Shown here: positions 1,009 through 38,669 of the stretch, one piece after another | Numbering within the stretch: the first letter of the stretch is position 1 | Layout: every line of letters starts with the position of its first letter | IMG/VR virus record: IMGVR_UViG_2877953467_000003 | Coordinates: 1-40,358 of that record | DNA: 40,358 nt | Reading direction: 5' to 3' (one strand) | Source of the DNA: a virus | Taxonomy: Duplodnaviria; Heunggongvirae; Uroviricota; Caudoviricetes | Program-made: the position numbers and the translations under genes | Notes under the pieces: model-generated | Database searches by the model: none | What the model saw: the letters and a program-made list of their open reading frames with translations, nothing else | What the model was told of the DNA's origin: nothing

Positions 1009-1083
1009 GTCCTCTTAGTTAAATGGATATAACGAGCCCCTCCTAAGGGCTAATTGCAGGTTCGATTCCTGCAGGGGACACCA
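1009..1083 (+). tRNA. argW: tRNA-Arg (anticodon CCU)
   Basis: 75 nt cloverleaf read from sequence: acceptor GTCCTCT/AGGGGAC, anticodon loop CTCCTAA, T-arm GCAGG-TTCGATT-CCTGC, 3' CCA. Confidence 0.9.
1069..1083 (+). repeat. attL core (15 bp direct repeat CTGCAGGGGACACCA at tRNA 3' end)
   Basis: Exact copy found again at 38655-38669; the two copies bracket all phage genes. Confidence 0.7.
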
Positions 1084-1244
1084 TTTGTCAGTTCGCTCCC
1101 ATCCGTACCAGTCCGCAAAATCCCCTGAATATCAAGCCTTCCGTATATTCACGGTTCGTCATGGTTCGCTTCAGATCGTTGACAGCCGCACTCCATGACG
1201 GGTAAAAAGTGGATAAAATAATTTTACCCACCGGATTTTTACCC

Positions 1245-2402
1245 ATGCTCACCGTTAAGCAGATTGAAGCAGCAAAGCCGAAAGAAAAACCATACCGCCT
1301 TCTCGATGGTAATGGCCTATACCTTTATGTCCCTGTATCAGGGAAAAAGGTATGGCAGCTTCGCTACAAGATTGACGGTAAGGAGAAAATCCTGACTGTA
1401 GGAAAATATCCGCTAATGACTTTGCAGGAGGCAAGAGATAAAGCATGGACCGCGAGGAAAGACATCTCGGTTGGCATCGATCCGGTAAAAGCGAAAAAGG
1501 CTTCGTCTAAGAACAATTCCTTTAGTGCGATTTACAAGGAATGGTACGAGCACAAGAAGCAAGTCTGGTCAGTAGGCTATGCAACTGAACTTGCAAAAAT
1601 GTTTGATGACGACATTTTACCTATCATCGGCGGCCTTGAAATTCAGGATATTGAGCCGATGCAACTGCTGGAAGTAATCCGCAGATTTGAAGATCGCGGT
1701 GCAATGGAGCGAGCCAACAAAGCCCGCAGAAGATGCGGCGAGGTTTTCCGTTACGCTATTGTCACCGGAAGGGCTAAATATAACCCGGCACCTGACCTTG
1801 CTGACGCCATGAAGGGATACCGCAAGAAGAACTTCCCGTTTCTTCCTGCAGACCAGATCCCTGCATTCAACAAAGCACTGGCAACATTTTCAGGAAGCAT
1901 CGTATCGCTCATTGCGACCAAAGTTTTACGCTACACAGCCCTAAGAACGAAAGAGCTTCGTTCCATGCAATGGAAGAACGTCGATTTTGAAAACAGGATT
2001 ATCACTATCGACGCCAGTGTGATGAAGGGCCGCAAGATTCATGTTGTTCCTATGTCAGACCAGGTGGTTGAACTTCTCACTACGCTAAGCTCCATCACCA
2101 AACCAGTCTCAGAGTTTGTTTTTGCCGGGCGCAACGATAAGAAAAAGCCAATTTGCGAGAACGCGGTGCTACTTGTGATCAAACAAATCGGCTATGAGGG
2201 TCTGGAAAGCGGTCACGGATTCAGGCATGAATTCAGCACGATTATGAACGAGCACGAATGGCCTGCTGATGCTATTGAAGTGCAACTGGCACATGCCAAC
2301 GGCGGATCTGTGCGCGGGATTTACAACCATGCTCAGTATCTCGATAAACGCAGAGAAATGATGCAATGGTGGGCGGACTGGATTGATGAAAAGGTGGAGT
2401 GA
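1245..2402 (+). CDS. intS: Tyrosine-type phage integrase (KplE1/CPS-53 IntS-like)
   Basis: Adjacent to argW; N-terminus MLTVKQIEAAKPKEKPYRLLDGNGLYLYVP typical of P4/IntS-family integrases; ORF track gives 1209 as the earliest ATG, 1245 is the likely start. Confidence 0.88.
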   Translation: MLTVKQIEAAKPKEKPYRLLDGNGLYLYVPVSGKKVWQLRYKIDGKEKILTVGKYPLMTLQEARDKAWTARKDISVGIDPVKAKKASSKNNSFSAIYKEWYEHKKQVWSVGYATELAKMFDDDILPIIGGLEIQDIEPMQLLEVIRRFEDRGAMERANKARRRCGEVFRYAIVTGRAKYNPAPDLADAMKGYRKKNFPFLPADQIPAFNKALATFSGSIVSLIATKVLRYTALRTKELRSMQWKNVDFENRIITIDASVMKGRKIHVVPMSDQVVELLTTLSSITKPVSEFVFAGRNDKKKPICENAVLLVIKQIGYEGLESGHGFRHEFSTIMNEHEWPADAIEVQLAHANGGSVRGIYNHAQYLDKRREMMQWWADWIDEKVE

Positions 2403-2464
2403 TCCGCCTTAACCATTATCGAAGGGCACAAAGCCTTGCAATCCAGTGCAAAGCTTTGTGTGTA

Positions 2465-2899
2465 TCAGTTTAGTGGGGATGCGGGTAACGGCTGGCTTCC
2501 ATCCTCTCCCCTGATATATGCCCGTAACGCTATCCGGTAACGGGTCCATGCTTCTAACTCCACTTTCACCGCATTTTCTGTTGTCCCTGCGTAATCCGAA
2601 TCTTCTATCTGCTCGTTCAGTGCAGTGATTTTTGCCGTTGCCACATTGTACGCAGCCTGCGCCAGTGCCAGGTTTTGTGCTGCAAGGTCTTCTGCCGTTT
2701 GTTCAGGTTCAGGAGGTGGGATAAATACGCCATTTGCATATGACCATCCGATGCCCGGTGTTGGGGCTGATGTTCCATCCCCGGATTGAGCAATCTGAAT
2801 TGCTATCTGATTACCGCCAAATCCAATCGCCGTTTCACCATCCCAGACAATGACGTTTACGACAGTGCCATTTTCAATTACTGCATATGTCTTGCTCAT
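2465..2899 (-). CDS. Tail fiber assembly protein (Tfa)
   Basis: MSKTYAVIENGTVVNVIVWDG N-terminus typical of Tfa chaperones; directly downstream of the tail fiber gene. Maximal ORF extends to 2914. Confidence 0.8.
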   Translation of the reverse strand: MSKTYAVIENGTVVNVIVWDGETAIGFGGNQIAIQIAQSGDGTSAPTPGIGWSYANGVFIPPPEPEQTAEDLAAQNLALAQAAYNVATAKITALNEQIEDSDYAGTTENAVKVELEAWTRYRIALRAYIRGEDGSQPLPASPLN

Positions 2900-2903
2900 C
2901 TTA

Positions 2904-3797
2904 TCACCATTCAATTATCACAATACCCGGAGCCCCATTGCCGCCGCTGCCGCCAGGTGATGCATCACCACCGCCCATTGCCGCATTACCGTATTTTCCC
3001 CCGCCACCACCTCCGCCAGCACCATATCCATACGCATCAGCGCCGTTCGCCACCGGGTCAGATTTCGTAATAGCCCGACCGTTTCCACCACCACCGCCAA
3101 ATGGGGAGCTGCTGCCAAATCCACCTGCTGCAGTTCCTGCTGTTAAAATACCATCCCCGCCCGTCGCCGCCATTGGATAGCCACTGCCTCCTGTTCCCCC
3201 TGCAATTGTTGCGCCCGGTGTGGGTGTGTTAAGTCCACCATTTCCACCTTTGCCGCCTGTCAGTGTTACCAGACTGCCAATAATCGTATTTCCTCCATCT
3301 GTTCCATTACCGCCCGCCCCGACTGATGCAGATGCGCCTATTCCGGCAGCGCCTATAGTGACCGGGATTGATGTTCCTGCTGCGACGGTAAATTTCTTTT
3401 TGATGATTGACTGTCCGGCACCTCCACCGCCGCCTCCTCCTCCGTAATAAGTGGTATCACCTCCACCGCCACCACCGCCGCCACCACCGCCAGCACAGGC
3501 AGTCACATAAATCTCGGTAACCCCATCAGGGATTGTTATCGTCTGTGAAGATGACACAACGACGAAACGGTTATGGCTTATGCAACGGATCGCTGTTAAT
3601 AACTGGTCGTGACGGGATTTATCCAGGCTGGCACCTGACGCCTCCACCACGCTGCAAAGCTCTTCCTGCAACATATCAAAGTAGTCATCATCCAGATCGG
3701 TGGCAGGTGTGCCGGTCTGGGGGTTACCACGGGTAAAACCGTTCTTACCCGCGCCGAACTTATCCTTCTGCGCGGTTTTCGTGTCTATACGATGCAT
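2904..3797 (-). CDS. Tail fiber protein with glycine-rich shaft
   Basis: Conserved tail fiber N-terminus followed by long poly-Gly/GGxGG runs; occupies the Mu gp49 (S) position after the baseplate genes. Confidence 0.7.
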
Positions 3798-3800
3798 GGA

Positions 3801-4385
3801 TTACTCCGGATATTTAAAAATTACGTAGGTATGCGAAGGGCAGAGTTTGTTAAGCACGCACTCGACAACGGTGTCGCCCCAGATACGCAGTGCGGAATCA
3901 CAGGGATCGCCACATGTCATCCAGGTGATGTTGGTGGCGGCTGGCATGTTGACCTGCCAGTAATACCGCCATTCCGGCGCATTCACTGCGTCAGTACAGG
4001 CCGATGAGCAGGTGAACGTGCTTTTATCGTATCGCGTGATAGTGGCGTCTGGTCTGCCCAGGGCAGCAAGCTGTGCAAGATAAAAATCCTCATTGATGCC
4101 GCCCGCCAGATTAACCTTCGCATCCAGCCGTTGCTGACGCTGGCGAAGGGTCTGTGTCCCTGCGGGAATACATTCATCCGGCAGACCGCACAGACGCTCC
4201 CAGCGGTTTATCAGTTCAGTGGTGGTGCGCGGATCCAGCTCCCGCATCAGGGCATCCGCACGCTGATGAACACGGGTTAATGAAGGTGCCGCACCGGCAA
4301 TCGCCGGATCGCTGGCTGACCACGCCGGACCGGGTGGCAACAGTGCCGACAACAGGCGGATGTAATCATCGTTTGTCACGTCCAT
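3801..4385 (-). CDS. Mu gp48-like tail protein (DUF2313/YmfQ family)
   Basis: Position and sequence character consistent with Mu gp48 family, between baseplate J and tail fiber. Confidence 0.65.
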
Positions 4386-5434
4386 GAAATCGTCCCCAGT
4401 ACCGCCAGTTCATTTTTCGCAATGGAGATATTGTCCGCCGGTGCCAGCAACTGATGGCTGTATTCCCCGTTCGCACCGGAAATCGCCTCACTGATACGTG
4501 ACACCTTCAGTTCTCCCTGCGGATAACCATCACGCAGCAAAAACGAACGTAACTCCGCGGTGATGGCAGCCCGTATTTCCGGTGTGTCCGGCGTCACATG
4601 GATATGAAAATCCACCGTATGCGCCACCGGCCTGAACACATACAAATCAGAGCCTGCCACCGGGGCCAGTGGCTCGATATGTTGTCTTGCCGCCGTTTCC
4701 GTTGATTCTTCCGGAATGGGATTAATCAGGTCACTGCTGGCAATCATCACACCGACAGTCCCCGTTCCCATCCAGTGACGGTATGTCCATGCGCGGGTAA
4801 TGCCGGGCACTTCTTTAGCCCAGACGACATAGTCCCCGTCAGCCCCGCCCTGCGGCGTCCAGTAATACCGCTCAATGACGCGGGCGCGCCACGTTTCCAG
4901 CTCTTCAGTATCAAATCCGCCTGTAAGGGTGTCAGCCACACCGGAAGACGGCAGACCATTCACCGGCGTGACCAGGATTAATGCCGTACCGTCGTCAGCG
5001 TTACCGACCGCACCTGCACTTGAGCAGGCGATCGGCACGCGCAGGACACCACCGGAGCTGGTTGCATCGGCAGTTGCCGTGTACTGAACCAGGTCATCGC
5101 GCTGAATAACACTCCCGGCGGTCACCTTCAGGCCATCGCTGACACCTTCCCAGCGCATATACCCGCTGGCAGCCGTGGCCCCCTTGCGCGGACACCGTTT
5201 CATCGCAGCATGTCGCGCCAGCCAGGACTCATCGCACAGGTCAGGCAGCATATTCATTGCCAGATAATCGATGTACCCGTAAACCGTATGCAGCGCCGCC
5301 GCATACACCTTTGCCCGCACGTCTTCATCCATGCGCCGGAGCGTGTCGCTGACGTCCAGCCTGGCGAATAAATCGTTACGGAGCATACTGATATTTTCTG
5401 CCAGCGTCGGGCGCTGAAATTCACTGTCCGCCAT
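4376..5434 (-). CDS. Baseplate J-like protein (Mu gp47-like)
   Basis: 352 aa; synteny within the Mu-like baseplate cluster. Confidence 0.7.
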
Positions 5435-5849
5435 GCGTTATCGCACTCCACAGATCATCAAAAGAAATCATTACCGGTCCGTCACGACGCCAGAGAGTGA
5501 TACTGTTACCCAGCTCATTAATCCCGGTGCGGCGGATATCCAGATCAATACGGGACACCACGCCGTCATCAATCATCCATTGCAGGCATTCGCGGATATA
5601 CCCCCTTACCGTCTGCACCAGCTGATTGGTCAGTTTGCTGCGCTGAAGCAGCCACAGTCGGGAGCCGTAACGGTCATTCTGTACCGCAGGCCAGGTATCC
5701 CCCCACCATCCCATCGGGACATCGGCGTTGTCATCAGGCTCCGCCCGCCGCCAGGTAAACAGGGAAATCACCACGGCGCGGGTCAGCGGATCCAGCTGTG
5801 CGCTGGCGCAGGTGCGTTTACCGTTCACCGTCAGCCACAGTTCCATCAT
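5421..5849 (-). CDS. Baseplate protein (Mu gp46-like, gpW/gp25-like)
   Basis: 142 aa; synteny between the spike and J-like genes. Confidence 0.6.
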   Translation of the reverse strand: MMELWLTVNGKRTCASAQLDPLTRAVVISLFTWRRAEPDDNADVPMGWWGDTWPAVQNDRYGSRLWLLQRSKLTNQLVQTVRGYIRECLQWMIDDGVVSRIDLDIRRTGINELGNSITLWRRDGPVMISFDDLWSAITHGGQ

Positions 5850-6394
5850 GCCTCCATCGCTTTATCAGGTTTGTCGGTGTTACTGCCCTGACCGTTCTCT
5901 CTGTGACGATGCCCGTTATAGGCAAGCCGCATCGCTGACATGGTGGTACCGCTGGAGTCGCACAGGTCTTTCACCTGTCCTGTCACTTCCAGGTCCATTT
6001 CAAAACGTGCTTTAGGTGAATTGCGAAACGTGATCGTTTTACCTGCACCGTCCACCACGATCCCCTCCCGGGTCAGCGTCACGGACTGCCCCTGATCGTC
6101 ATAGACAGCCACCTCACCCGTCTGCAGCCCTTTCAGGCGGTAGCGCCGGTCCGACACCGTAACAACCACCGCATGAGAACGGTCGCCATCCGGAAACAAC
6201 ACCACCGCTTCCGCACCGCTGTTTGCCCTTGCGGTAAAACCATAGGGTTCAAGATGTTCAACCCCGGCTTTGGGTTCACCGGCAATCAGGGACACATCCA
6301 CGGTCTGGCATTTCGTGGCGGCACTGATGCTTTTCACCACTGCCCGCCCAATCAGGCCGAGAAGTTGTCGCTGCATGGCTTCAATCGTCCTCAT
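5846..6394 (-). CDS. Baseplate assembly protein V / spike (Mu gp45-like)
   Basis: 182 aa; synteny; start overlaps the stop of the upstream gene. Confidence 0.65.
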   Translation of the reverse strand: MRTIEAMQRQLLGLIGRAVVKSISAATKCQTVDVSLIAGEPKAGVEHLEPYGFTARANSGAEAVVLFPDGDRSHAVVVTVSDRRYRLKGLQTGEVAVYDDQGQSVTLTREGIVVDGAGKTITFRNSPKARFEMDLEVTGQVKDLCDSSGTTMSAMRLAYNGHRHRENGQGSNTDKPDKAMEA

Positions 6395-7473
6395 CAGAAC
6401 GGGTCCTCCTGTACTCTGGCTTTTTTCTTTTTCCGCGCGCCGGGAGCTTCGGGTTCAGGCAGATAAGCATCAGGCGGGCCGACACGGATTTCCGTCAGGG
6501 TGCCGTTCTGGTCCTGAGTAAACGTGACTTCCGAGACAAGCAGTTCGGTATTGTCGAAACCACAGACCGGATCGAAGACAATCACCCGCTGGTTGGGCTG
6601 CCACAGCGTACCGTTACCCTGTCGCCAGCCCTGCACCACATAGGTGGTTTCATCCGTCCGCGCCGCCCGTTGTCGGGCTTCAAAGTCCGCACGGGCAATA
6701 CAGCCTGCCCCCGTAGCCTGCCCTGTCTGCCTGATATACATCGGACGGTAACGGGCAATAAATGCGTCCTCTGTGCGGGCCCGCAGCGCGGTGGTGGTGG
6801 CCTCACCGAAATCATCGTCGTTTCCGGCACGCTGCCCCGCCACCTGGTAAACAGAAAACCGCTCCCGGATACTCTTCTCCGTATCGCAGGAAAGGATGTT
6901 TTCCCCGAGTACCAGCGCAGTATGTGCCCGCGTTGAGCCAATACCGCCAATCACCAGCCTGCCGTGCGGGTCGTCGTAAGCCAGTGCCTGCTGCTGACCG
7001 AGTATTTTGTTGATTACCTCAATCACCGTTTCACCGTGATCAGGCTGAACATCAGGAATAACACCCGACGGCGCACCGCTGTTCACCACCTCAATGCCGA
7101 AAGGCGCAGCAAGCGCCTGCGCAATCTGCACCAGCGAGCGTCCGTTAAACTGTGTCGGTTCAGCTGCACAGTCAATCAGGTCAGCCGTCAGACTACGTCC
7201 GGCAATACCGGTGCTGACCGAACGGGCATCGTAACGAACGGGAGTCGCCTCCACCCAGCCGGTGATCACCAGCTCATCACCAATCAGCACTTCCACTTTT
7301 GAACCGTTTTTAATGCGCGGCTGAAGCGTGGTGATACCCTCATCTCCCGGCCACTGGCGAGTGATCTCCACACTGAAATCCCGCGCCAGCCGTTCAATAC
7401 CGGCACCGATGCGCACCGATGTCCAGCCATTCCACTCCCGGCCATTTACCCGTAGCGTGACATTGTCGTTCAT
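6394..7473 (-). CDS. Baseplate hub / late control D-like protein (Mu gp44 P-like)
   Basis: 359 aa; synteny after the DNA circularization gene. Confidence 0.65.
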   Translation of the reverse strand: MNDNVTLRVNGREWNGWTSVRIGAGIERLARDFSVEITRQWPGDEGITTLQPRIKNGSKVEVLIGDELVITGWVEATPVRYDARSVSTGIAGRSLTADLIDCAAEPTQFNGRSLVQIAQALAAPFGIEVVNSGAPSGVIPDVQPDHGETVIEVINKILGQQQALAYDDPHGRLVIGGIGSTRAHTALVLGENILSCDTEKSIRERFSVYQVAGQRAGNDDDFGEATTTALRARTEDAFIARYRPMYIRQTGQATGAGCIARADFEARQRAARTDETTYVVQGWRQGNGTLWQPNQRVIVFDPVCGFDNTELLVSEVTFTQDQNGTLTEIRVGPPDAYLPEPEAPGARKKKKARVQEDPF

Positions 7474-8846
7474 TGCACTGGCACCTTCAGAGGGATCACC
7501 GGCACAAAGCCGGGATGCGTAATGGCATTACGCCGGATAATGTCCGCGTCACGCGCCGCGTTATCAAACCAGGTCGCCGCCAGCACCAGCGCGGGTAAAA
7601 CCTCATCCGGTGTGCGCTGAATGATCCGTGCAGACTGTTCAAGGCGCGTGTTGATATCCGCATTCAGATCTGCTTTCACCCGGCGCAGCGCCAGAAACAG
7701 CGCATCACTGGTTGTACGGGACAACTCCTTATCAATTGCCGTATTCAGTGTGTCACGAATGTCAGTCAGTTCTTCCCACGTCGGCAGGTCAACCGTGTTT
7801 TTCACCGCCGGTGCATTGTTCAGTGCCGGATGCGTGACGGAAGGCCAGCCAGTGCTCTGCGCAGGTGTTGTTGCCTGCCCCACTGCGGAATTCTGCATCA
7901 CCGCGGAAGTTGTTGGCGCAGGCAATCTGGTGACGGCATACGCCGCTTCACTGATTGCGGTCGTACGAAGGGTGCTGGCAACCACATTACGCTGCTGCGT
8001 AGCCGTGGCGGTGGTTTTACTGTCCGTTTTCCAGACGCCGCGCGGTTGCAGATCGCTGCCGAGGCTGACACCGGAAAGCGTTTTGATCATGGTGACCAGG
8101 TCGCTGGCGTTACCATAAAGGCGTTTCCCGGTACGCCACATTTTCTGCACCTGCTCAACGAGATTTTTGCCTGACGATGGTGGCGGCAGAAGTACCGAGA
8201 TATCCCCCTGCAACAGCCTGGCAGCATCCGATACGGCAGAATCCACCACTTTCATCGCATCAGAAACATACCCAAGCATTGTGCTGACATTACCAACGAC
8301 GTCGTTCTGCACGAAATCCGCCACGCCATCGATACTGAAACCTCTGAAGCTGTCACTGATGCAATCATCCAGTGCAGAACAGGATGACATCAGCGTCTGC
8401 GCCGTCGCCGCACCTGAAGTGGGGTAAGAGAGTTCTCCCGCTTCGACAAACTTCAGGTCAAAGCGGACAATACGCCCTTCACTCTTCGATGTGCTGACCC
8501 GAACTTCTCCGTCAACACAGACTTTCAGCTCACCGTATGTCGGATGGACAAGCGTGCCGGGACCGGGTTTATTCAGCGCGTCAATCAGGCGATCGCGCTG
8601 GTCAAAGCAGTCATCTCCCACCACATAAGCCGTGATGGACGGGCGAAAAGTGATTTTCCCCAGGTCTTCGGTATAGGGTTTGTCGCGGTTCGGGTATTCA
8701 TGTGTTTCCACACGGCGACCGGTTCCCGCACTTTCTTCTTCAACCTTAAACGGCACGCCGCGAAATGACGCGTCCTGAAGTCTGTCACGCCAGCCTGAAG
8801 ACGACGAAAGTAATGAAGGTCGGGTGGGAAATGAGGATAAATCCAT
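7470..8846 (-). CDS. DNA circularization protein N (Mu gp43-like)
   Basis: 458 aa; immediately downstream of the tape measure gene as in Mu-like tails. Confidence 0.65.
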   Translation of the reverse strand: MDLSSFPTRPSLLSSSSGWRDRLQDASFRGVPFKVEEESAGTGRRVETHEYPNRDKPYTEDLGKITFRPSITAYVVGDDCFDQRDRLIDALNKPGPGTLVHPTYGELKVCVDGEVRVSTSKSEGRIVRFDLKFVEAGELSYPTSGAATAQTLMSSCSALDDCISDSFRGFSIDGVADFVQNDVVGNVSTMLGYVSDAMKVVDSAVSDAARLLQGDISVLLPPPSSGKNLVEQVQKMWRTGKRLYGNASDLVTMIKTLSGVSLGSDLQPRGVWKTDSKTTATATQQRNVVASTLRTTAISEAAYAVTRLPAPTTSAVMQNSAVGQATTPAQSTGWPSVTHPALNNAPAVKNTVDLPTWEELTDIRDTLNTAIDKELSRTTSDALFLALRRVKADLNADINTRLEQSARIIQRTPDEVLPALVLAATWFDNAARDADIIRRNAITHPGFVPVIPLKVPVQ

Positions 8847-8870
8847 AGACTGACCTCAAAAAGGACTGCG

Positions 8871-13189: not shown

Positions 13190-13197
13190 GAAGATTC

Positions 13198-14966: not shown

Positions 14967-14968
14967 AC

Positions 14969-23614: not shown

Positions 23615-23619
23615 ATATT

Positions 23620-29256: not shown

Positions 29257-29288
29257 GCCCTTTTTCAGGGCTGGAATGTGTAAGAGCG
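29257..29288 (-). promoter_or_regulatory. nutR site (boxA CGCTCTTACA and boxB GCCCTGAAAAAGGGC)
   Basis: Minus-strand sequence CGCTCTTACACATTCCAGCCCTGAAAAAGGGC matches lambda nutR as recalled; between cro and cII. Confidence 0.7.
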
Positions 29289-29529: not shown

Positions 29530-29642
29530 TAGTGCCTCCGTTTATCATACAGAATAACTTTACCATTTTGATAAATCAACTGCAATGTAAATTTATCATA
29601 TTGCGTATTTATCCATTTGCTAAATAGAGGGAGAATTGTGAG
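29530..29642. promoter_or_regulatory. Immunity operator/promoter region (OR, pR/pRM)
   Basis: 113 bp AT-rich divergent intergenic region with repeated TTTATC(A) half-sites (e.g. 29541-29557, 29608-29624). Confidence 0.5.
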
Positions 29643-30347
29643 ATGGAAAACAAAGATATTCGCAAATCGAATCTGGCGTTTTTGCTAGATGAGCATAAAA
29701 AAATCGCGGGTAACACTAATGCAAGCTTTGCCGATAAGCTTGGGGTTAGCCCTTCTCAACTCACGCAAGTCTCCGGTGAAAAAAGCACTCGAAACATAGG
29801 GGATAAACTAGCAAGAAAATTTGAAGCTGCACTTGGGTTACCTAATGGGTGGCTTGATTTGGTACATGATGTAACACCAATTGCATCATGCTCAGATTCT
29901 TTAACTTTTGTAGGTCAGGTAAGAAAAGGGTTAGTGCGCGTGGTTGGTGAGGCAATTCTTGGTGTTGATGGTGCCATCGAGATGACCGAAGAGCGCGATG
30001 GGTGGCTCAAAATTTATAGCGATGATCCAGATGCCTTTGGTCTTCGTGTGAAAGGAGACAGCATGTGGCCCAGAATAAAATCAGGAGAATATGTACTCAT
30101 TGAGCCTAACACCAAAGTATTCCCGGGTGATGAGGTGTTTGTCAGAACCGTTGAAGGACACAACATGATTAAGGTTCTTGGCTATGACAGAGATGGAGAA
30201 TACCAATTTACAAGCATTAACCAGGACCACAGGCCAATAACGTTGCCTTATCATCAAGTAGCAAAGGTGGAGTATGTGGCTGGTATTCTGAAGCAATCTC
30301 GCCATCTGGATGACATCGAGGCAAGGGAGTGGCTGAAAAATTCGTGA
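29643..30347 (+). CDS. CI prophage repressor (HTH plus S24 LexA-like peptidase domain)
   Basis: N-terminal HTH; C-terminal autocleavage domain with GDSMWP serine motif. Confidence 0.85.
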   Translation: MENKDIRKSNLAFLLDEHKKIAGNTNASFADKLGVSPSQLTQVSGEKSTRNIGDKLARKFEAALGLPNGWLDLVHDVTPIASCSDSLTFVGQVRKGLVRVVGEAILGVDGAIEMTEERDGWLKIYSDDPDAFGLRVKGDSMWPRIKSGEYVLIEPNTKVFPGDEVFVRTVEGHNMIKVLGYDRDGEYQFTSINQDHRPITLPYHQVAKVEYVAGILKQSRHLDDIEAREWLKNS

Positions 30348-30513: not shown

Positions 30514-31518
30514 ATGAATTCTATTGAAAATCATGATGTTTATGTGTATACAGGCGATATTCATCGTGATGGTTATCTTGATCTCACCAATGAAATCAAG
30601 AAACGTAAGTCACAACATGGATTAAAAGAGAATGTTATCTTCTGTGTTGCTACTTATGGCGGTGATCCAAATGCAGGTTATCGTATAGGTAGAGCTCTAC
30701 AGCACCATTATGAAACGGTAACACTTTTAGTTGTTGGACCATGCAAAAGTGCTGGTACACTAATAGCTATAGCAGCCAATAAACTTGTTATTGGTGACAT
30801 GGGGGAGCTTGGGCCATTAGATATCCAACTGAAAAAAAACGATGAAATAGGTGAGATGAGTTCTGGTTTAGCTATCATGACAGCTCTTGATGCTCTAAAG
30901 GAACGCTCTATTTCAGCGTTTAACTCACACCTTGTTAAGATAAGATACGAAAATCAGATAAGTACCAAAATGTCTGCTGATATCGCGACCAGACTTACAG
31001 AAGCGTTGATAGCACCTATGGCCGCACAGATAGATCCAATAAAGCTTGGTGAACATCAGCGCGCAATGAGTATAGCTATCACTTATGGCCAACGATTAGC
31101 AGACAAACCAAGCAGCCTAAAAGAAGGGGCGTTAGGCAAACTAATAGCCTCATATCCTTCACATGGATTTGTTATCGACAGAAAAGAAGCCAAGGAACTT
31201 TTCAAGTGTGTTGAACATCCTGAAGGCATAACAGAAATACTCTATAATCTTTTCTGTGACAAAATTCATAGTGGTGAAATTCCAACATTTGGAAAGCCAA
31301 GAGTAATGGATTTCACTGTTTCCCAACAAGATAAAGAGGAATACACTAATGCCGAAGAATCTGCAACCGGAGATGGAAGTTCTCAACAGGATGCTGGAAA
31401 GCCAGATCCAGGAAGGTCGCGATCTGGCAAGAAAAGCGGAACAACACCTGAACGAGATCAAGAAGGAATTGGAGCCGTATCAATTCAACCACCAGATGAA
31501 CAGCAACCTAATGCGTGA
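30514..31518 (+). CDS. ClpP/S49-like serine peptidase family protein at the rex-equivalent position
   Basis: 334 aa; ClpP/crotonase-like motifs (VATYGGDPNAGYRIG, GPCKSAGTLIAIAANK) plus polar disordered C-terminal tail; AT-rich gene; family assignment from motif recognition only. Confidence 0.55.
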   Translation: MNSIENHDVYVYTGDIHRDGYLDLTNEIKKRKSQHGLKENVIFCVATYGGDPNAGYRIGRALQHHYETVTLLVVGPCKSAGTLIAIAANKLVIGDMGELGPLDIQLKKNDEIGEMSSGLAIMTALDALKERSISAFNSHLVKIRYENQISTKMSADIATRLTEALIAPMAAQIDPIKLGEHQRAMSIAITYGQRLADKPSSLKEGALGKLIASYPSHGFVIDRKEAKELFKCVEHPEGITEILYNLFCDKIHSGEIPTFGKPRVMDFTVSQQDKEEYTNAEESATGDGSSQQDAGKPDPGRSRSGKKSGTTPERDQEGIGAVSIQPPDEQQPNA

Positions 31519-31755: not shown

Positions 31756-31797
31756 TTTATCATTTTGCTATTGCCATTAATTTATCATTTCGATAAA
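31756..31797. promoter_or_regulatory. OL operators / pL region
   Basis: 17 bp sites with TTTATC half-sites (31756-31772; 31781-31797, inverted repeat TTTATC-N5-GATAAA) sharing the OR motif. Confidence 0.45.
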
Positions 31798-31836: not shown

Positions 31837-31869
31837 GAGGCTCTTAAAAATTAAGCCCTGAAGAAGGGC
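31837..31869 (+). promoter_or_regulatory. nutL site (boxA-like GCTCTTAA and boxB GCCCTGAAGAAGGGC)
   Basis: Near-identical to lambda nutL as recalled; perfect boxB hairpin. Confidence 0.75.
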
Positions 31870-32067: not shown

Positions 32068-32400
32068 ATGGATGCACAAACACGCCGCCGCGAACGTCGC
32101 GCAGAGAAACAGGCTAAATGGAAAGCAGCAAATCCCCTGTTGGTTGGGGTAAGCGCAAAACCAGTTAACCGCCCTATTCTCTCGCTGAATCGCAAACAGA
32201 AATCACGAGTAGAAAGCGCACTGAATCCTATAGACCTTACAGTGCTGGCTGAATACCGCGAACAGATTGAAAGCAACCTGCAACGTATTGAGCGCAAGAA
32301 TCAGCGCACATGGTACAGCAAGCCACGCTGTGAAATGGGTGTGACTTGCTCAGGCCGCCAGAAGCAACGCGGAAAATCAATTCCAGCTTATTACGATTGA
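32068..32400 (+). CDS. N: Antitermination protein N
   Basis: Begins MDAQTRRRERRAEKQAKWKAANPLLVG (arginine-rich motif), recognised as near-identical to lambda N; downstream of nutL. Confidence 0.9.
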   Translation: MDAQTRRRERRAEKQAKWKAANPLLVGVSAKPVNRPILSLNRKQKSRVESALNPIDLTVLAEYREQIESNLQRIERKNQRTWYSKPRCEMGVTCSGRQKQRGKSIPAYYD

Positions 32401-32600: not shown

Positions 32601-33071
32601 ATGACAAAATCATGGAGCGTACCTTTTCCTGAATCAGAAACTGAACATGATGGAATGCCTGTTTTCTGGAGATTCCAGGCGACAGTTGAAGAAGATGGAA
32701 TCAAAATATTCGCACTTCAATATATAGCTTTTCATCAGACAGAGCATTATGCATGGTTGGTTCCTGCGCATTGGATTGTTAATTTTAAACCAGCACCAAA
32801 TCAGTGGTTACAGGAATGGAAACAAAAGAGAAATAGATATGCAATTAAGAAAGTAGCAAAAAATGCAGAAAGATCTTTTGCATTCCCAACGAAGAAACTT
32901 GCTATTGAAAGTTTATTGCGTCGGAAGAAATACCATTTAATGAGAATCAAACAAGATTTGGCTGTTGTATCAACTCTTGTTGATGGGATGAAGAATATTG
33001 ATACATCAACACCAGATATTGAATATAACTTTGGGCACAACCAAGAAACAGAAAATTGGGTATTTTATTAG
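32601..33071 (+). CDS. Hypothetical protein (AT-rich accessory gene downstream of N)
   Basis: 156 aa ORF with GAGGTGAG RBS; no recognisable motifs; AT-rich codon usage. Confidence 0.5.
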   Translation: MTKSWSVPFPESETEHDGMPVFWRFQATVEEDGIKIFALQYIAFHQTEHYAWLVPAHWIVNFKPAPNQWLQEWKQKRNRYAIKKVAKNAERSFAFPTKKLAIESLLRRKKYHLMRIKQDLAVVSTLVDGMKNIDTSTPDIEYNFGHNQETENWVFY

Positions 33072-33214
33072 TACGAGTAAGCACTGTGTATTCATTCCAA
33101 CGAGTGAATACACGGAGCAATGTCGCTCGTAACTAAACAGGAGCCGACTTGTTCTGATTATTGGAAATCTTCTTTGCCCTCCAGTGTGAGGGCGATTTTT
33201 TTGATGGAGGATAT

Positions 33215-34183
33215 ATGAGTGAAGTAACAGATTTAGTTGTTATTGAAAAAGCAAATGCAATGACTGTATTTCAGTCTGCCGACCAGATTGAAGAAATTCT
33301 CCAAAAGGTTGAACGTGAAGTTATGTCCTTTGTGCCTGATATCACAACGGCAAAGGGCAGAAAGGAGATCGCTTCTCTGGCGTATAAAGTTGCGCAGACG
33401 AAAACATATCTCGATGGTCTTGGCAAAGACCTTGTTGCTGAACTGAAGGAAATTCCAAAGCTAATTGATGCCAACCGCAAGACAGTGCGTGATCGACTTG
33501 ATGAGCTGAAAGCCAAGGCGCGCCAGCCTCTTACTGATTATGAGGAGGAACAGGCACGGATTAAAGCCGAAGAAGAAGCTAAGGCAGCAGCTGAAGCTCT
33601 CGCAAAGCAAATTGAGTCTGACCATGAAATAGCGATTTTGATGGATCGCGAATTTGACCGCCAAAGAGAAGAGGCAAGACTCAAAGCGGAGCAGGAAAAG
33701 CGAGAGCATGAAGAACGCTTAAAAAGAGAAGCTGAAGAGAAAGCCAGAGCAGAAGCCGAAGCAAAGGCAAAAGCCGAAATTGAAGCAGCAGCAAGGCGAG
33801 AAGCAGAAGCTAAGGCCGCAGCGGAACGTGCAGAGCGTGAACGCATTGAAGCCGAGCAACGAGCACAGCGCGAAGCAAAAGAGGCAGCAGAACGAGCTGA
33901 AAAAGAAAAGCAGGCAGCAATTGAAGCAGAACGCAGAAAAGCACAGGAGGAGGCTGAACGAATCCGGCGCGAGGCTGAAGCAAAAGAGCAAGCCAGAATA
34001 GCAGAAGAAAAAAGAATCAAGGATGAAGAAGAGCGTAGAGCAAAGGATAAAGCTCACCGGAAAGAAGTAAATAACAAAATACTTGCTGACCTTATCAAGG
34101 TTGGCGCATCAGAAGATGTTGCTAAAAATATCATAATAGCCATCGTAAAAGGCGAAGTATTCGCAACAAAAATAACCTACTAA
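33215..34183 (+). CDS. Hypothetical protein with long E/R/K/A-rich helical (coiled-coil or single alpha-helix) region
   Basis: GGAGG RBS before ATG at 33215; about 120 aa N-terminal domain, about 170 aa charged repeat (AEAKAKAEIEAAARREAEAK), short C-terminal domain. Confidence 0.6.
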   Translation: MSEVTDLVVIEKANAMTVFQSADQIEEILQKVEREVMSFVPDITTAKGRKEIASLAYKVAQTKTYLDGLGKDLVAELKEIPKLIDANRKTVRDRLDELKAKARQPLTDYEEEQARIKAEEEAKAAAEALAKQIESDHEIAILMDREFDRQREEARLKAEQEKREHEERLKREAEEKARAEAEAKAKAEIEAAARREAEAKAAAERAERERIEAEQRAQREAKEAAERAEKEKQAAIEAERRKAQEEAERIRREAEAKEQARIAEEKRIKDEEERRAKDKAHRKEVNNKILADLIKVGASEDVAKNIIIAIVKGEVFATKITY

Positions 34184-34732
34184 TAAAACCAACATAAGGA
34201 ACCACCCATGATTTACGCAATCGCGGGAGGCGCTCGCATGGGTGCCTTCCAACTAAATGAATCTTTACTTGAACGAATCACCCGTAAATTACGTGACGGA
34301 TGGAAAAGAGTTGAGGTCTTATTATGCGCAATGAAATAGCCATCAATCACCAGATGCTTCGTGCTGCACAGAACAAAGCAGTAATAGCCCGATTTATTGG
34401 TGATTCAAAAATGTGGCTTGAAGCAAATAAAGCGATGAAATCAGCTATCAACCTTCCGTGGTATCGCAGGAAATGAGTTTTACAGATAACTGGCCAGACG
34501 AAGAATTCATTCGTCAGATGAAAGAATTAATCGGTAACGAAGGAGATATTCATGTCACTTGCAACCACAGTGAAGGAGAGCAAGTTACAGAGACGCATGT
34601 ACACGCAGAAAGCTCTCTGGTATCGCCATAATGGCGACCGCGAAGGAATGCGGGTATGCCTTAATTTGTCCCGAGTCGAAGTATTAAATCAGCGTTATTT
34701 CCTTGGGCCATGTCCATTCTGAGAACAAACAT

Positions 34733-35338
34733 ATGAGCAAAGAATTTTACGCAAGACTGGCAGCTATTCAGGAGAATCTGAACGCGCCAAAGAATCAGTA
34801 CAACTCATTCGGTAAATATAAATACAGAAGCTGCGAAGACATTCTTGAAGGCGTTAAGCCGTTACTGAATGGCCTGTTTTTATCAATCAGCGATGAAGTT
34901 GTGTTGATTGGTGATCGGTATTATGTGAAAGCCACGGCAACTATTACCGATGGCGAAAACAGTCATACGGCAACCGCTCTTGCACGAGAGGAAGAAAGCA
35001 AGAAAGGAATGGATTCTGCACAAGTTACGGGAGCCACAAGCTCTTATGCACGCAAGTATTGCCTCAATGGTTTGTTCGGCATTGATGATGCGAAAGATGC
35101 AGATACCGACGAGCATAAACATCAGCAGAACGCAGCAGCAAAGCAATCAAAACCATCACCTACACCTGAACAGGTTCTAAAAGCATTCACTGACGCAGCA
35201 TTGCAGAAAAACACCGTGGAAGAGCTTAAACAGGCGTTCGCCAAAGCGTGGAAGATGCTCGAAGGCACACCGGAGCAGCACAAAGCGCAGGACGTTTACA
35301 ACATCAGACGAGACGAATTAGAAGGAGCTGCTGCTTAA
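34733..35338 (+). CDS. erf: ERF-family single-strand annealing protein
   Basis: MSKEFYARLAAIQENLNAPKNQYNSFGKYKYRSCEDILEGVKP recognised as P22 Erf-like; precedes SSB. Confidence 0.75.
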   Translation: MSKEFYARLAAIQENLNAPKNQYNSFGKYKYRSCEDILEGVKPLLNGLFLSISDEVVLIGDRYYVKATATITDGENSHTATALAREEESKKGMDSAQVTGATSSYARKYCLNGLFGIDDAKDADTDEHKHQQNAAAKQSKPSPTPEQVLKAFTDAALQKNTVEELKQAFAKAWKMLEGTPEQHKAQDVYNIRRDELEGAAA

Positions 35339-35721
35339 TGGCACATTCGATTACTGTAAGACTAAACAAGCCCGCAAGAGAGTTTCAGGACGGGGAAAAT
35401 ATCGGATTCAACATCCGTGCTGGCGTTCAGTATTACGATCGCCAGACAAAAAAGAAAGAATGGACAAACTACAGCGCCGTTGTATTTGCCAAGCCGGGAG
35501 CGCAAGCGGATTACTACCGTAGTGTTCTTGTTGAAGGTGGCATTGTAGAAATTACCGGAGAAAACATCAGGGTTGATGTTTATCAGGGGCAAAATGGTCA
35601 ATCAATCACTCTTGAATTACTGAATGCAAAGATTGGATTTGCAACTTCAGGAAACAGCCAACAGCAGCAAAGTAGCAATCATCAAAATCATCCTGAATAC
35701 GACGATTCAATTCCCTTCTAA
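35338..35721 (+). CDS. ssb: Single-stranded DNA-binding protein (SSB-like)
   Basis: 127 aa; start overlaps erf stop (TAATG); ends with acidic tail DDSIPF like the SSB C-terminal DDDIPF motif. Confidence 0.6.
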   Translation: MAHSITVRLNKPAREFQDGENIGFNIRAGVQYYDRQTKKKEWTNYSAVVFAKPGAQADYYRSVLVEGGIVEITGENIRVDVYQGQNGQSITLELLNAKIGFATSGNSQQQQSSNHQNHPEYDDSIPF

Positions 35722-35744
35722 AGTAGCAATATAAGGATTCCATT

Positions 35745-36041
35745 ATGCCAGCGCCTCTGTATGGTGCGGATGACCCACGCCGCTGTTCCGGCAATTCCGT
35801 ATCGGAAGTGCTGGATAAATTCAGAAAAAACTACGACCTGATAATGTCGCTACCGCAGGAAACGAAAGAGGAAAAGGAATTTCGCCATTGTATATGGCTT
35901 GCAGAGAAAGAAGAACGCGAGCGAATTTACCAGACATCAATCCGACCATTCCGCAAAGCCACATATACCCACTTCCCTGAATATATCGACCCGCGCCTGC
36001 GTAATTACCGCTCACGCTATGGCGCTATCAGTAATGACTGA
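35745..36041 (+). CDS. Hypothetical early protein (possibly Abc2-like anti-RecBCD; unverified)
   Basis: 98 aa ORF following erf/ssb; assignment rests on position and vague recall only. Confidence 0.4.
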
Positions 36042-36051
36042 GGAATTTACC

Positions 36052-36219
36052 ATGAGAGGACTTGCATACAATCCCGGCATTCTTCCGGCAGAAATGATTA
36101 TTCGCCAACGCGTAAAGCCCATGCCATCGAGAGAGGAATTGCTTAAGAGAAAGAGTTTCGGTTCTGTTAATGACAACAAATATCTGAATGCGATGTGGCG
36201 CAAAGGAGGCAACCAGTGA
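36052..36219 (+). CDS. Small hypothetical protein (55 aa)
   Basis: ATG at 36052 preceded by GAGGAA; ORF track shows a longer alternate-frame-start version (35899-36219). Confidence 0.3.
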
Positions 36220-36515
36220 GTGTATATCTTATTGATAAACGTCGACGTGGGCAACAAATACCACCTGTAGGAATTCCGAATCACACATGGTTTTGCGTAC
36301 TTGATATCGATGGTATGGATTCGTTGGTTGACACTCGTCATTACTGCGATACCGCAACAGCTACTCCGGCGAAAGCAAAGAAAATGGCTGCTCTGATAGA
36401 AAACTGGACTCCACCTGATGGTTGGTGCAATGGGAATGATCGAGATTGGCATGAAAAAATGAAGGGCTACATCTGCGATTTCTTACGTAAATGCAACGGA
36501 TTCAGGGTGATGTGA
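36195..36515 (+). CDS. Hypothetical protein
   Basis: 106 aa ORF; likely true start is GTG at 36216 preceded by AAAGGAGG. Confidence 0.45.
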
Positions 36516-36516
36516 C

Positions 36517-37134
36517 ATGAGCAAGATTGACTATCAGGCACTGCGTGAGGCGGCAGAAGCAATAAAAGTCGTGGCAACGCCGCAAAAGTTGCTTGCGTTT
36601 CGCATGAAGGTCACACCGCAGGTTGTGCTGGAACTACTGGATGAACGGGAAAGAAACCAGCAATACATCAAACGCCGCGACCAGGAGAACGAGGATATTG
36701 CGCTTACGGTTGGGAGGCTGCGCGTTGAGCTGGAAGGCAAAGACAGCAAAATAGCCAATCTTACCGCCGAACGCGATGCTCTTCGTGAAGGTGAGATGGG
36801 CGACGCTAGGCATAGCAACACACGGGCCGCAGCTGATATCTACTTCCAACTGGTCGAGGAGTGCGAAATTCCTGCTGGCGGATCTCTGGTCGAGTACGTT
36901 GACGATATGCGCGAGAAGCTGGAAGCCGCAGAGAAGCGCATTGCAGAGTTAGAAAGTGGTTCTCAGGCACAAAAGTTAGTTGAAGCAATCATTGTTGCGA
37001 TAGAAAACGAACAGGAACGTCTTTTTGATGAAGATTACCTAATGGATTCGAAAGAATGCATTGACGTAATTCGTGAAGAAGTAAAGCGATGGAATGATTC
37101 CCGCGCCGCTGGCATTCGCATCAAAGGAGAGTGA
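36517..37134 (+). CDS. Ead/Ea22-like hypothetical protein
   Basis: 205 aa acidic coiled-coil-containing protein in the early-left accessory region. Confidence 0.45.
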   Translation: MSKIDYQALREAAEAIKVVATPQKLLAFRMKVTPQVVLELLDERERNQQYIKRRDQENEDIALTVGRLRVELEGKDSKIANLTAERDALREGEMGDARHSNTRAAADIYFQLVEECEIPAGGSLVEYVDDMREKLEAAEKRIAELESGSQAQKLVEAIIVAIENEQERLFDEDYLMDSKECIDVIREEVKRWNDSRAAGIRIKGE

Positions 37135-37135
37135 T

Positions 37136-37333
37136 ATGGATAAAAACACCACTGCTTACTGGAATCTGTCACTTGATACCGAATGCCCCAAATGCGGTCA
37201 CAATTTCGATCTGCTTTGTGACGCTGATTTCTGGGAGTTTTCTGGAGCTAAACAGGCATGTGAAGAAATAAAAGGTTACGAAACATGCTGTCCAGAATGT
37301 AACCATGAATTTAAAACAGATTTCGTGTATTGA
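37136..37333 (+). CDS. Small zinc-ribbon-like protein
   Basis: CPKCG ... CCPECNH paired Cys motifs; ATG at 37136 after GGAGAG RBS. Confidence 0.45.
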   Translation: MDKNTTAYWNLSLDTECPKCGHNFDLLCDADFWEFSGAKQACEEIKGYETCCPECNHEFKTDFVY

Positions 37334-37343
37334 GGCATAACAA

Positions 37344-37973
37344 ATGACCACTATTACCAAAGAACGTATTGAATTGTTCATTAAAAATCCGCTTGAAAAC
37401 GGGCTTACTCGTGGCGAACAAATGGAACTGGCACGAATTGCACTGGCATCACTGGAACGCGAACTGATTCGCCACGAGCATGCCAAATGGTCTGACTCCA
37501 CATTTGGCTGCGTTGGCCCCATTGGTCCACTGAAACACCTCTCAAAAGAGGCACTGGAAGCCGCAGCCGAACCAGACGATCTCAGCGAGTGGGCTGATAT
37601 GCATTTCCTGTTGTGGGATGCACAGCGCCGTGCTGGCATCAGCGATGCTGAAATTACCGCTGCTATGGAAGATAAATTGAAGATCAACATGGAGCGCCAG
37701 TGGCCTGAGCCAAAAGATGGTGAGCCTCGCTTGCACATTAAAGAACCCGGCAACTCTCCGGTAACTCCGGATGGTTGGATAAGCTGTAGTGATCGAATGC
37801 CGGAAGACACCAAAATGTTACTGGCATTTAGTCAAGGTAAAATCGTGGCCGCATATTGGAACTGGGTTATAAATCCAATTGATTACAAAAAATATAGAGC
37901 TTTCACGTATTTATCAGGATATATCTTGGATGACGTAACTCACTGGATGCCGCTACCAGAGCCTCCACTTTGA
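37344..37973 (+). CDS. Hypothetical protein, possible DUF550/DUF551-type phage protein
   Basis: 209 aa; C-terminal VTHWMPLPEPP resembles DUF551 tails; domain assignment tentative. Confidence 0.45.
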   Translation: MTTITKERIELFIKNPLENGLTRGEQMELARIALASLERELIRHEHAKWSDSTFGCVGPIGPLKHLSKEALEAAAEPDDLSEWADMHFLLWDAQRRAGISDAEITAAMEDKLKINMERQWPEPKDGEPRLHIKEPGNSPVTPDGWISCSDRMPEDTKMLLAFSQGKIVAAYWNWVINPIDYKKYRAFTYLSGYILDDVTHWMPLPEPPL

Positions 37974-38069
37974 AAGCGAAGCTTATACATATCTTTTACA
38001 TCAGCAATCTATTGTTAATCTCCAATCAATGTTACGTTGTCATCTCACTCATGCTTTGGAGGTAGTGAT

Positions 38070-38249
38070 ATGTCTTGTCCAAAATGCGGTTCTGGAAATA
38101 TTGCAAAAGAAAAAACAATGCGTGGATGGTCTGGTGATTATGTGTGCTGCGATTGCGGATACAACGACTCTAAAGACGCATTTGGAGAGCGTGGTAAAAA
38201 CGAGTTTGTTAAAATTAATAAAGAACGCGAAGGCAACGAAAAAAGCTAA
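38070..38249 (+). CDS. Small zinc-ribbon protein
   Basis: MSCPKCGSGNIAKEKTMRGWSGDYVCCDCGYND: two Cys pairs; internal start of the 38037 ORF. Confidence 0.4.
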   Translation: MSCPKCGSGNIAKEKTMRGWSGDYVCCDCGYNDSKDAFGERGKNEFVKINKEREGNEKS

Positions 38250-38313
38250 TTTATTTATTCATATATGAAAACAATGTAACCAATATTCGAATTGAAGAAC
38301 TGAAAGAACACCA

Positions 38314-38337
38314 AGCCGCCTGATGGCGGTTTTTTAT
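38314..38337 (+). terminator. Intrinsic terminator
   Basis: Hairpin CCGCC-tgat-GGCGG followed by TTTTTTATT. Confidence 0.5.
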
Positions 38338-38380
38338 TACCTGATTTGCAGGTTCGATTCCCTATTCGGAGATAGCACTC

Positions 38381-38581
38381 ATGCAACACGAACTACAGCC
38401 TGATTCACTGGTTGATTTGAAATTCATCATGGCCGATACTGGCTTCGGTAAAACCTTCATCTATGATCGGATTAAGTCCGGAGACCTTCCAAAAGCCAAA
38501 GTTATCCACGGGCGAGCAAGATGGTTATATCGTGACCATTGTGAATTCAAAAATAAGCTCTTAAGCCGCGCCAATGGGTAA
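38381..38581 (+). CDS. torI: Excisionase / recombination directionality factor TorI (AlpA-like winged helix)
   Basis: 66 aa beginning MQHELQPDSLVDLKFIMADTGFGKTFIYDRIKSGDLP, recognised as E. coli TorI; lies just inside attR. Confidence 0.85.
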   Translation: MQHELQPDSLVDLKFIMADTGFGKTFIYDRIKSGDLPKAKVIHGRARWLYRDHCEFKNKLLSRANG

Positions 38582-38654
38582 AATAGCGGGTAAAATATTT
38601 CTCACATCTAAAAAACACCATTCCAATCAATCCCCTGCCGCCTCAAGTAGATGT

Positions 38655-38669
38655 CTGCAGGGGACACCA
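38655..38669 (+). repeat. attR core (15 bp direct repeat CTGCAGGGGACACCA)
   Basis: Exact repeat of tRNA 3' end 1069-1083. Confidence 0.7.

Follow-up and report, generated by a model that had tools for sequence, protein, structure and literature searches.

The window analysed here, a 40,358-nt stretch of Caudoviricetes DNA (IMG/VR record IMGVR_UViG_2877953467_000003), probably holds a single temperate phage genome, structurally complete at 37,586 bp, which the tyrosine integrase IntS inserted into the tRNA gene argW and which combines an SfV-type virion arm with a lambdoid early arm. The virion arm (~3.6-21.2 kb) appears to be of the SfV/SfIV/720R4 type, and the rest to be lambdoid, for the most part Sf6-like and with stretches derived from other lambdoid phages. 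A model reading of the same letters (the original prediction) had proposed a complete mosaic prophage at 1069-38669, and these coordinates begin and end exactly with the two att cores. Profile, structure-database or nucleotide comparisons confirmed every module that it named.

Under 60 feature calls (59 open reading frames (ORFs) and a tRNA pair), 91.6% of the prophage is coding. Each of the 59 ORFs has a start, a stop and no internal stop, with the portal gene read from the GTG at 18329. No insertion sequence (IS) element, transposase, frameshift, premature stop or interrupted gene was found in the prophage. These open frames agree with the predicted full gene set without obvious frameshifts, with one caveat, a private in-frame 21-bp duplication in the portal gene, which is weighed below.

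As argW is a known hypervariable hot spot of several phage types, we considered whether two prophages lie there in tandem (polylysogeny), with the internal att site lost. The window, however, holds two att cores only, and a single int, xis, repressor, terminase and lysis cassette. The 37.6 kb of the prophage correspond to one SfV-type genome (SfV 37.1 kb, SfIV 39.8 kb), and its gene order is that of one circularly permuted lambdoid genome. We give a tandem pair a negligible probability and treat the DNA as a single phage.

Attachment sites and the IntS/TorI module

The ends of the prophage carry these features:
1009-1083, plus strand: argW, tRNA-Arg(CCT), the integration target, left intact (ARAGORN; same as K-12 argW in alignment)
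1069-1083, plus strand: attL core, 15 bp (16 bp on the attL side); exact repeat, published KplE1 core
1084-1244, plus strand: attL P' arm overlapping the intS promoter, with TorI pentamers, a TTGACA -35 box and TAAA arm-type IntS sites
1245-2402, plus strand: intS, tyrosine integrase, 385 amino acids (aa) (ATG at 1245; Pfam Arm-DNA-bind_3, Phage_int_M, Phage_integrase)
38313-38332, plus strand: terminator-like hairpin and T-run directly upstream of torI, also conserved in Sf6
38381-38581, plus strand: torI, recombination directionality factor, 66 aa (identical to K-12 TorI at 66/66 aa and to Sf6 gp18)
38582-38669, plus strand: attR P arm (38582-38654) and attR core (38655-38669) (alignment to K-12/Sf6; core repeat)

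The 15-mer core CTGCAGGGGACACCA occurs exactly twice in the window, at the 3' end of argW (1069-1083) and at 38655-38669; in shuffled sequence there were 0 matches in 100 shuffles, with 0 expected. The published KplE1 core is CTGCAGGGGACACCAT, and the 15-mer is the same minus the last base (PMC2951348). Core identity extends over 16 bp at attL and 15 bp at attR, a difference that fits a crossover within the 15 bp and an attB with G as the next base. Core to core, the prophage DNA measures 37,586 bp.

Both ends are close to E. coli K-12 MG1655, with 97.3% identity over window positions 1-2474 (yfdC-argW-attL-intS, yfdC lying at 1-933, left of argW) and 97.6% over 38331-38669 (torI-attR). The attR P arm has two base differences from K-12 and Sf6. 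As predicted, IntS adjoins attL and TorI adjoins attR. IntS is identical to K-12 IntS at 382/385 residues (3 differ) and to Sf6 Int at 99%. Using the TorI and IntS site definitions of PMC2951348, we located five predicted TorI pentamers in attL, in two blocks (GTTCG at 1091 and GTCCG at 1111; GTTCG at 1154, GTTCG at 1164 and GATCG at 1174). In an alignment with K-12 and Sf6, these pentamers, the adjacent TTGACA -35 box and the TAAA arm sites show no change relative to K-12. With a core at the argW 3' end, IntS at attL and TorI at attR, the element appears to carry a recombination module of the KplE1/Sf6/HK620 type.

The integrase gene is codirectional with the tRNA at the attL end and torI sits at the attR end, so attP is placed between xis and int. 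Because of this position of attP, int and xis are not co-transcribed in the prophage, and their uncoupling is the defining regulatory peculiarity of this phage sub-family. The novelty implied by the original prediction was overstated: the split layout has been described for the viable phages Sf6, HK620, CUS-3 and Kapi1 and for KplE1 (PMC2951348, PMC8787464), the annotation of the Sf6 record shows the same int-attP-xis order, and E. coli YPE10 has a complete SfV-type prophage at argW with intS and torI at its ends. In KplE1, binding of IntS and TorI over the intS promoter in attL keeps intS low (PMC2951348). A simple sigma-70 consensus scan found no promoter upstream of torI, and the same scan missed the published intS promoter too.

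A 15-nt exact copy of an argW T-arm segment (TGCAGGTTCGATTCC, at 1055-1069) lies at 38347-38361; torI begins ~20 nt downstream of it, and the att core is ~300 nt away. The copy is kept in K-12 and Sf6, falls inside the 'pI' promoter annotated in Sf6, and holds a GTTCG TorI-type pentamer. It could be what remains of an ancestral, longer attP derived from the tRNA gene, or it could serve regulation. Beyond attR, the right host flank (38670-40358) is the csc sucrose-utilisation operon, with cscB at 39111-40358, and dsdC and most of dsdX are replaced; cscK, cscA and cscR lie past the window end and were seen in a related contig (L033). The flank is the known hypervariable argW-dsd island.

The virion arm

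Tail, head and packaging genes follow intS in this order:
2465-2899, minus strand: tail fibre assembly protein (Pfam/PHROG matches)
2904-3797, minus strand: tail fibre, SfV-type N-terminal 65 aa and glycine-rich distal domain (Pfam Gly_rich_2/PHROG)
3801-8846, minus strand: baseplate genes, homologues of Mu gp48, gp47 (Baseplate_J), gp46, gp45, gp44 and gp43 (DNA circulation)
8871-10778, minus strand: tape measure
10863-11186, minus strand: tail assembly chaperone
11183-11539, minus strand: tail tube
11539-13035, minus strand: contractile sheath
13019-13189, minus strand: DUF2635/Mu gp38-like
13198-15169, minus strand: tail terminator, head closure, head-tail connector and small neck genes (full length against 720R4/YPE10; Pfam; YPE10 annotation)
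15219-16424, minus strand: major capsid, HK97-type (Pfam Phage_capsid)
16439-17125, minus strand: S78 prohead protease (Pfam Peptidase_S78)
17067-18329, minus strand: portal, GTG start at 18329 (Pfam Phage_portal)
18282-18323, minus strand: in-frame tandem duplication of a 21-bp unit (two copies, encoding FSGLFQR) at the 5' end of the portal gene
18523-20256, minus strand: TerL (Pfam ATPase and nuclease domains)
20270-20764, minus strand: TerS, P27-family (Pfam Terminase_4)
about 20822/20823, between HNH and TerS: cos, where the SfIV genome ends abut (alignment)
20881-21231, minus strand: HNH endonuclease (Pfam HNH)

All 25 genes in 3801-21231 are full-length and collinear, with lengths as in SfIV, vB_EcoM-720R4 and the YPE10 prophage, at 90-100% aa identity; the exception is the neck gene at 13755-14261, which is 60% identical to SfIV but 99% to 720R4. 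Identity is 97-100% for the baseplate genes, full length against SfIV, 720R4 and YPE10, and 98-100% for the head genes (capsid, protease, portal) against SfIV. The Mu-type contractile tail that had been predicted is borne out by Pfam matches to sheath, tube, tape measure, DNA_circ_N, Gp44-like, Phage_Mu_Gp45, GP46, Baseplate_J and Phage_Mu_Gp48; these assignments were made on CP023201.1, which is 100% identical over 1-13797, and those of the neck genes on a contig of run SRR9734793, 99.99% identical. The HK97-type head with HNH-assisted terminase was likewise recovered, through the Pfam families Phage_capsid, S78, portal, TerL, Terminase_4 and HNH. According to the SfIV and 720R4 annotations, an HK97-type head, a Mu-type tail and lambdoid organisation make up the SfV-family architecture. 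Across the 100 nt surrounding cos, one mismatch was seen relative to the joined linear ends of SfIV, and therefore cos is intact.

The original prediction named cryptic frameshifts or deletions, found on closer alignment, as grounds for abandoning it. A base-level indel scan against YPE10, 720R4 and APEC37 returned only two indels in 17.6 kb of virion arm. At the TerS 3' end (20265-20288, minus strand), an 8-bp insertion changes the C-terminus from NPFLKIIES to NPFLTI, leaves TerS three residues shorter and abolishes the TerS/TerL overlap (ATGA in reference phages). We rejected this insertion as a lesion: it is a natural allele, since the unrelated prophages L025 and L027 carry the same insertion, and TerL is unaffected.

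The tail fibre matches SfIV over the first 65 aa only, and long poly-Gly runs occupy its distal part. An identical tail fibre was found in 28 blocks of the sequence collection; of the 8 places shown, 7 adjoin intS at argW, and the eighth lies beside another integrase and a Dus-family gene. From the intS stop (2402) to the stop of the tail fibre assembly gene (2465) there are only 62 bp (2403-2464), with no O-antigen cargo. No gtr or oac ORF was found in the window prophage, and the int-proximal slot is empty, whereas K-12 CPS-53 and YPE10 have gtr genes in this position.

Lysis, late control and the early arm

Between the packaging genes and the replication block lie:
21518-22060, minus strand: Rha-family/ORF11CD3 regulatory protein, between lysis and packaging genes (Pfam; TIGR02681)
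22274-22723, minus strand: Rz (Pfam Phage_lysis)
22327-22512, minus strand: Rz1 lipoprotein embedded in Rz, lipobox LVVSAC
22708-23205, minus strand: R21 signal-anchor-release (SAR) endolysin (165/165 residues match PDB 3HDE and 4ZPU (RrrD))
23205-23420, minus strand: S21 pinholin, 71 aa, MKSM dual start (M1/M4; MKSMDK...) (Pfam PF04971, E 8.6e-36)
23539-23694, minus strand: tRNA-Thr(TGT) and tRNA-Asn(GTT), downstream of Q/PR'/tR' and before the holin (ARAGORN)
23786-24274, minus strand: Q21-type late antiterminator, 162 aa (Pfam Phage_antitermQ)
24265-26341, minus strand: nin region, comprising NinI phosphatase, NinG, NinF, NinE and NinB (Pfam)

The predicted pinholin/SAR-endolysin pair of phage 21 type was found, with a PF04971 holin and an endolysin matching 3HDE over its whole length. 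The 3HDE entry, labelled just 'Lysozyme', we take to be the phage 21 R endolysin. The endolysin N-terminus forms a Gly/Ala-rich helix with hydrophobic residues 5-27. With its S21 dual-start holin, SAR endolysin and Rz/Rz1 spanin pair, the cassette is of the phage 21 type. Q aligns with PDB 6P18 and 6JNX over 162/162 residues (E 1e-109), the nin proteins are 93-99% identical to their Sf6 homologues at the aa level, and the Sf6 record lists the same tRNA-Asn/Thr pair as 'similar to phage 21'. In the collection, 466 blocks encode a Rha-family protein identical to the one here, and most of them are SfV-type prophages whose lysis cassettes are of other kinds; because of this association, the boundary between the arms probably falls inside or just upstream of Rz.

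The early region is laid out as follows:
26400-28864, minus strand: replication block, which includes a small 53-aa ORF
26400-27851, minus strand: DnaB-like helicase (Pfam DnaB, DnaB_C)
27826-28716, minus strand: O-like initiator
28899-29180, minus strand: cII (Pfam Phage_CII)
29257-29271, minus strand: nutR boxB, with boxA (exact lambda boxB)
29296-29529, minus strand: cro (PHROG 'transcriptional repressor' match)
29541-29624: OR, three operators
29643-30347, plus strand: cI, S24 repressor (Pfam Peptidase_S24)
30514-31518, plus strand: 334-aa ORF between cI and OL/PL, in the slot equivalent to rexAB
31781-31797: OL, one operator
31855-31869, plus strand: nutL boxB (exact lambda boxB)
32068-32400, plus strand: N, lambda-type (Pfam N36, E 1.5e-25; 97% aa identity to Sf6 gp37)
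32601-38249, plus strand: early-left operon, opening with 156-aa and 322-aa ORFs
34208-34339, plus strand: cIII (gene call on L033)
34324-34476, plus strand: kil (gene call on L033)
34733-35338, plus strand: Erf recombinase (ERF superfamily, E 2.5e-44)
35338-35721, plus strand: SSB-like
35745-36041, plus strand: Abc2 anti-RecBCD
between Abc2 and the Ead-like gene, plus strand: DUF2737 and DUF7739 genes
36517-37134, plus strand: Ead/Ea22-like
37344-37973, plus strand: dATP/dGTP pyrophosphohydrolase-DUF551
38070-38249, plus strand: Lar-like

Assignments in the early-left operon come from Pfam, PHROGs, gene calls on L033 and Sf6 homologues. The search recovered the lambda-type N/nut/cII/nin set of the original prediction (N36, two exact boxB copies, Phage_CII, nin genes) and its erf and DnaB-like helicase (ERF superfamily; DnaB/DnaB_C). 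The surroundings of boxA and boxB at nutL and nutR appear near-identical to those of lambda. From 21281 on, DNA identity to Sf6 is patchy (92-99%), with non-Sf6 segments in between; the matching patches are Rz, the tRNA pair, Q, nin, helicase, O, N, gene 33, cIII, kil, abc2 and torI-attP. Helicase and O are 99% identical to Sf6 gp44 and gp43 at the aa level, and the Erf allele differs from that of Sf6. Two clusters of 11-bp iterons lie within the O gene, at 28225-28342. The 17-base operator TTTATC-N5-GATAAA was found 8 times in the window against 1.55 expected, with three copies in OR and one in OL. An identical cI is present in 1,937 blocks of the collection, and this is therefore a common immunity type. 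The gene plan as a whole (N/nut, cI-cro-cII-cIII, O/helicase and ori, nin, Q, lysis, morphogenesis) follows the lambdoid order.

The rexAB slot is expressed in lysogens. Here it is filled by the 334-aa ORF, which has a distant match to the ClpP/SDH fold (29.6 bits in Pfam, under the cut-off, and 36.7 bits in NCBIfam against a cut-off of 250) and falls in PHROG 21683 (unknown function). PADLOC gave no defence-system match for ten accessory ORFs, the 334-aa ORF included, and a literature search on its Prokaryotic Genome Annotation Pipeline (PGAP) product name found nothing. A single-sequence AlphaFold model had a mean predicted local distance difference test (pLDDT) score of 41 and was unusable. 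In prophages with an identical cI, the slot is taken by unrelated genes (DUF6932 plus a 310-aa ORF, DUF1828, HicA), and this variability suggests a hot spot for morons or defence genes.

Short-tailed P22-like phages are the setting in which the argW IntS/TorI cassette and the largely Sf6-like early arm have been characterised so far. A possible, though doubtful, extension of our reading is that the window prophage is a viable hybrid between morphotypes, in which these two modules drive production of a contractile-tailed virion of the SfV type, and that the 334-aa ORF is a new exclusion or defence determinant.

Occurrence

Window positions 1-13797 are 100% identical to GenBank CP023201.1, from E. 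coli strain 360/16. The strain comes from neonatal calves in India and was described in a draft genome announcement (PMC5814501). A 73-kb Logan contig from SRR9734793 (L024) differs at 2 positions over 11518-32060 (99.99% identity) and runs on through torI and attR into the csc/dsdA flank. Among 5,426 complete RefSeq E. coli genomes, 142 cover at least 80% of the left 21 kb, and 0 cover at least 80% of the right 20 kb or the packaging/lysis junction. None of the matches listed, from 50,697 phage records and the same RefSeq genomes, holds both arms in one record, and the Ead-like protein (36517-37134) occurs in only 3 contigs of the large collection. The exact combination of modules is rare, being found in CP023201 and a few other assemblies.

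We also considered whether the hybrid is an assembly artefact, in which a reference-guided draft chromosome fused contigs of an SfV-like and an Sf6-like prophage. CP023201 is described as a draft though deposited as a single chromosome, and its packaging/lysis junction is in no complete RefSeq E. coli genome. Yet the SRR9734793 contig, at 99.99% identity over 11518-32060, spans every critical junction; the intS/tail-fibre junction is present at ~98.6% identity in six other argW assemblies, and the TerS-HNH-Rha-Rz junction recurs in APEC37 at 98.6%. These data make an assembly artefact highly improbable, and we take the hybrid to be a real phage genome.

Intactness

In the portal gene, the N-terminus reads MFFSGLFQRFSGLFQRKSD versus MFFSGLFQRKSD in relatives. 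The 21-bp duplication behind this difference occurs only in the window and the SRR9734793 contig; SfIV, YPE10, 720R4, APEC37 and five other related prophages do not have it. It is the sole structural change private to the lineage. A subtle lesion of this kind, or a missense change, could block particle formation while leaving all frames open, so that the prophage would be recently inactivated (cryptic), and the rarity of the lineage agrees with that view as does the privacy of the duplication. The duplication is, however, in frame and within the first 16 residues, and over the remaining 411 residues the protein matches the SfIV portal at 100%. There is no further private indel in the 17.6-kb virion arm, and all regulatory sites are intact. 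We consider inactivation unlikely, with the portal duplication or some missense change as its likeliest cause.

Several further points count against a structurally complete, working phage and should be set beside this private 7-residue N-terminal insertion. The distal part of the tail fibre and its chaperone have no characterised counterpart, and a repressor cleavage site in cI was not identified. The rarity of the lineage means that there is no population evidence of active spread, and missense defects could go unseen in an analysis of sequence alone. Nevertheless, we favour the complete temperate phage, which could operate as follows.

Proposed cycle

In a lysogen, cI would repress PL and PR by occupying OR and OL, and intS would be held low by IntS and TorI on its own promoter in attL. 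The SOS response would trigger cI autocleavage, followed by N-dependent readthrough at nutL and nutR. Transcription from PL would then cross the recombination genes and the hairpin at 38313, expressing torI, and TorI and IntS would cut the genome out at the 15-bp core. Replication would start at the iterons through O and the helicase, and Q21 would switch on the late operon. HNH and terminase would cut cos and fill HK97-type heads, to which Mu-type tails would join, and the S21 pinholin, the R21 SAR endolysin and Rz/Rz1 would lyse the cell. Expression logic, excision and particle production in this scheme are borrowed from homologues, and anatomy and intactness are read from the DNA itself. 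The inducibility and the link to tor regulation put forward in the original prediction may apply here by analogy with work on K-12.

A full-length, apparently undamaged relative of KplE1 could let the IntS/TorI circuit, so far dissected in a prophage without a repressor, be studied in a possibly inducible context. The prophage also documents that, at the argW hot spot, SfV-type myoviruses and P22-like/lambdoid phages exchange whole genome arms. Current understanding is unchanged, as lambdoid mosaicism was already well established, and so was the split int/xis layout, and the importance of the element is modest.

Comparison with known systems

The SfV-type myoviruses SfIV, SfII, SfI, SfV and vB_EcoM-720R4 are collinear with the virion arm over 3601-21238, at 96.5-97.7% DNA identity, and SfI has a phage-21-type lysis cassette as well. 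Unlike the window prophage, SfIV has an adjacent int-xis pair, gtrABC serotype-conversion genes next to int, and IS elements. Its early region is SfV-type (YfdP-R-like, PerC, DUF968, a different Q), whereas that of the window is lambdoid and largely Sf6-like; we found no match to the early genes of SfIV, 720R4 or YPE10, save a weak (32%) similarity in cI. In gene content, the prophage conforms to the SfV type in its head, packaging genes, cos and Mu gp38-gp48-like tail, and departs from it in having neither a gtr cassette nor an SfV early region.

Sf6 shares the attP core, an Int at 99%, a TorI at 100% and the placement of attP between xis and int. Its N, gene 33, cIII, kil, abc2, O, helicase, nin, Q21-like and tRNA-Asn/Thr segments resemble those of the window at 92-99%. 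The two differ in immunity region, Erf allele and holin/endolysin; Sf6 has oac by int, and its ninG carries IS911, whereas ninG is uninterrupted here. The virions of Sf6, HK620, CUS-3 and Kapi1 are short-tailed and P22-like, with headful packaging and a tailspike, whereas the window arm, going by its genes, would make a cos-packaging, contractile-tailed virion of the SfV type.

K-12 CPS-53/KplE1 occupies the same site, with att arms at 97%, IntS at 99% and TorI at 100%. The original prediction contrasted the window with this defective remnant, and the contrast is true, if unsurprising: KplE1 is a 10.2-kb remnant that has gtrABS but lacks a repressor and all head, tail, replication and lysis genes. 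The other genes left in it, yfdP-T, which the window prophage does not have, are SfV-type early genes, and KplE1 therefore looks like an SfV-type remnant. The argW prophage of E. coli YPE10 (NZ_CP041448) has the same yfdC-argW-intS...torI boundaries and a virion arm 97.7% identical. It differs in having gtr by intS, an early region of the SfV type, and lysis genes for a lambda-family holin and a GH24 lysozyme, and two of its genes are annotated as frameshifted.

Set against these relatives, two things are particular to the window prophage, namely the union of an SfV-type virion arm with a lambdoid, largely Sf6-like early arm, and the missing O-antigen cargo in the int-proximal slot. Both are what modular exchange among lambdoid phages ordinarily produces, and the element is a new mosaic of known modules, not a new kind of phage.

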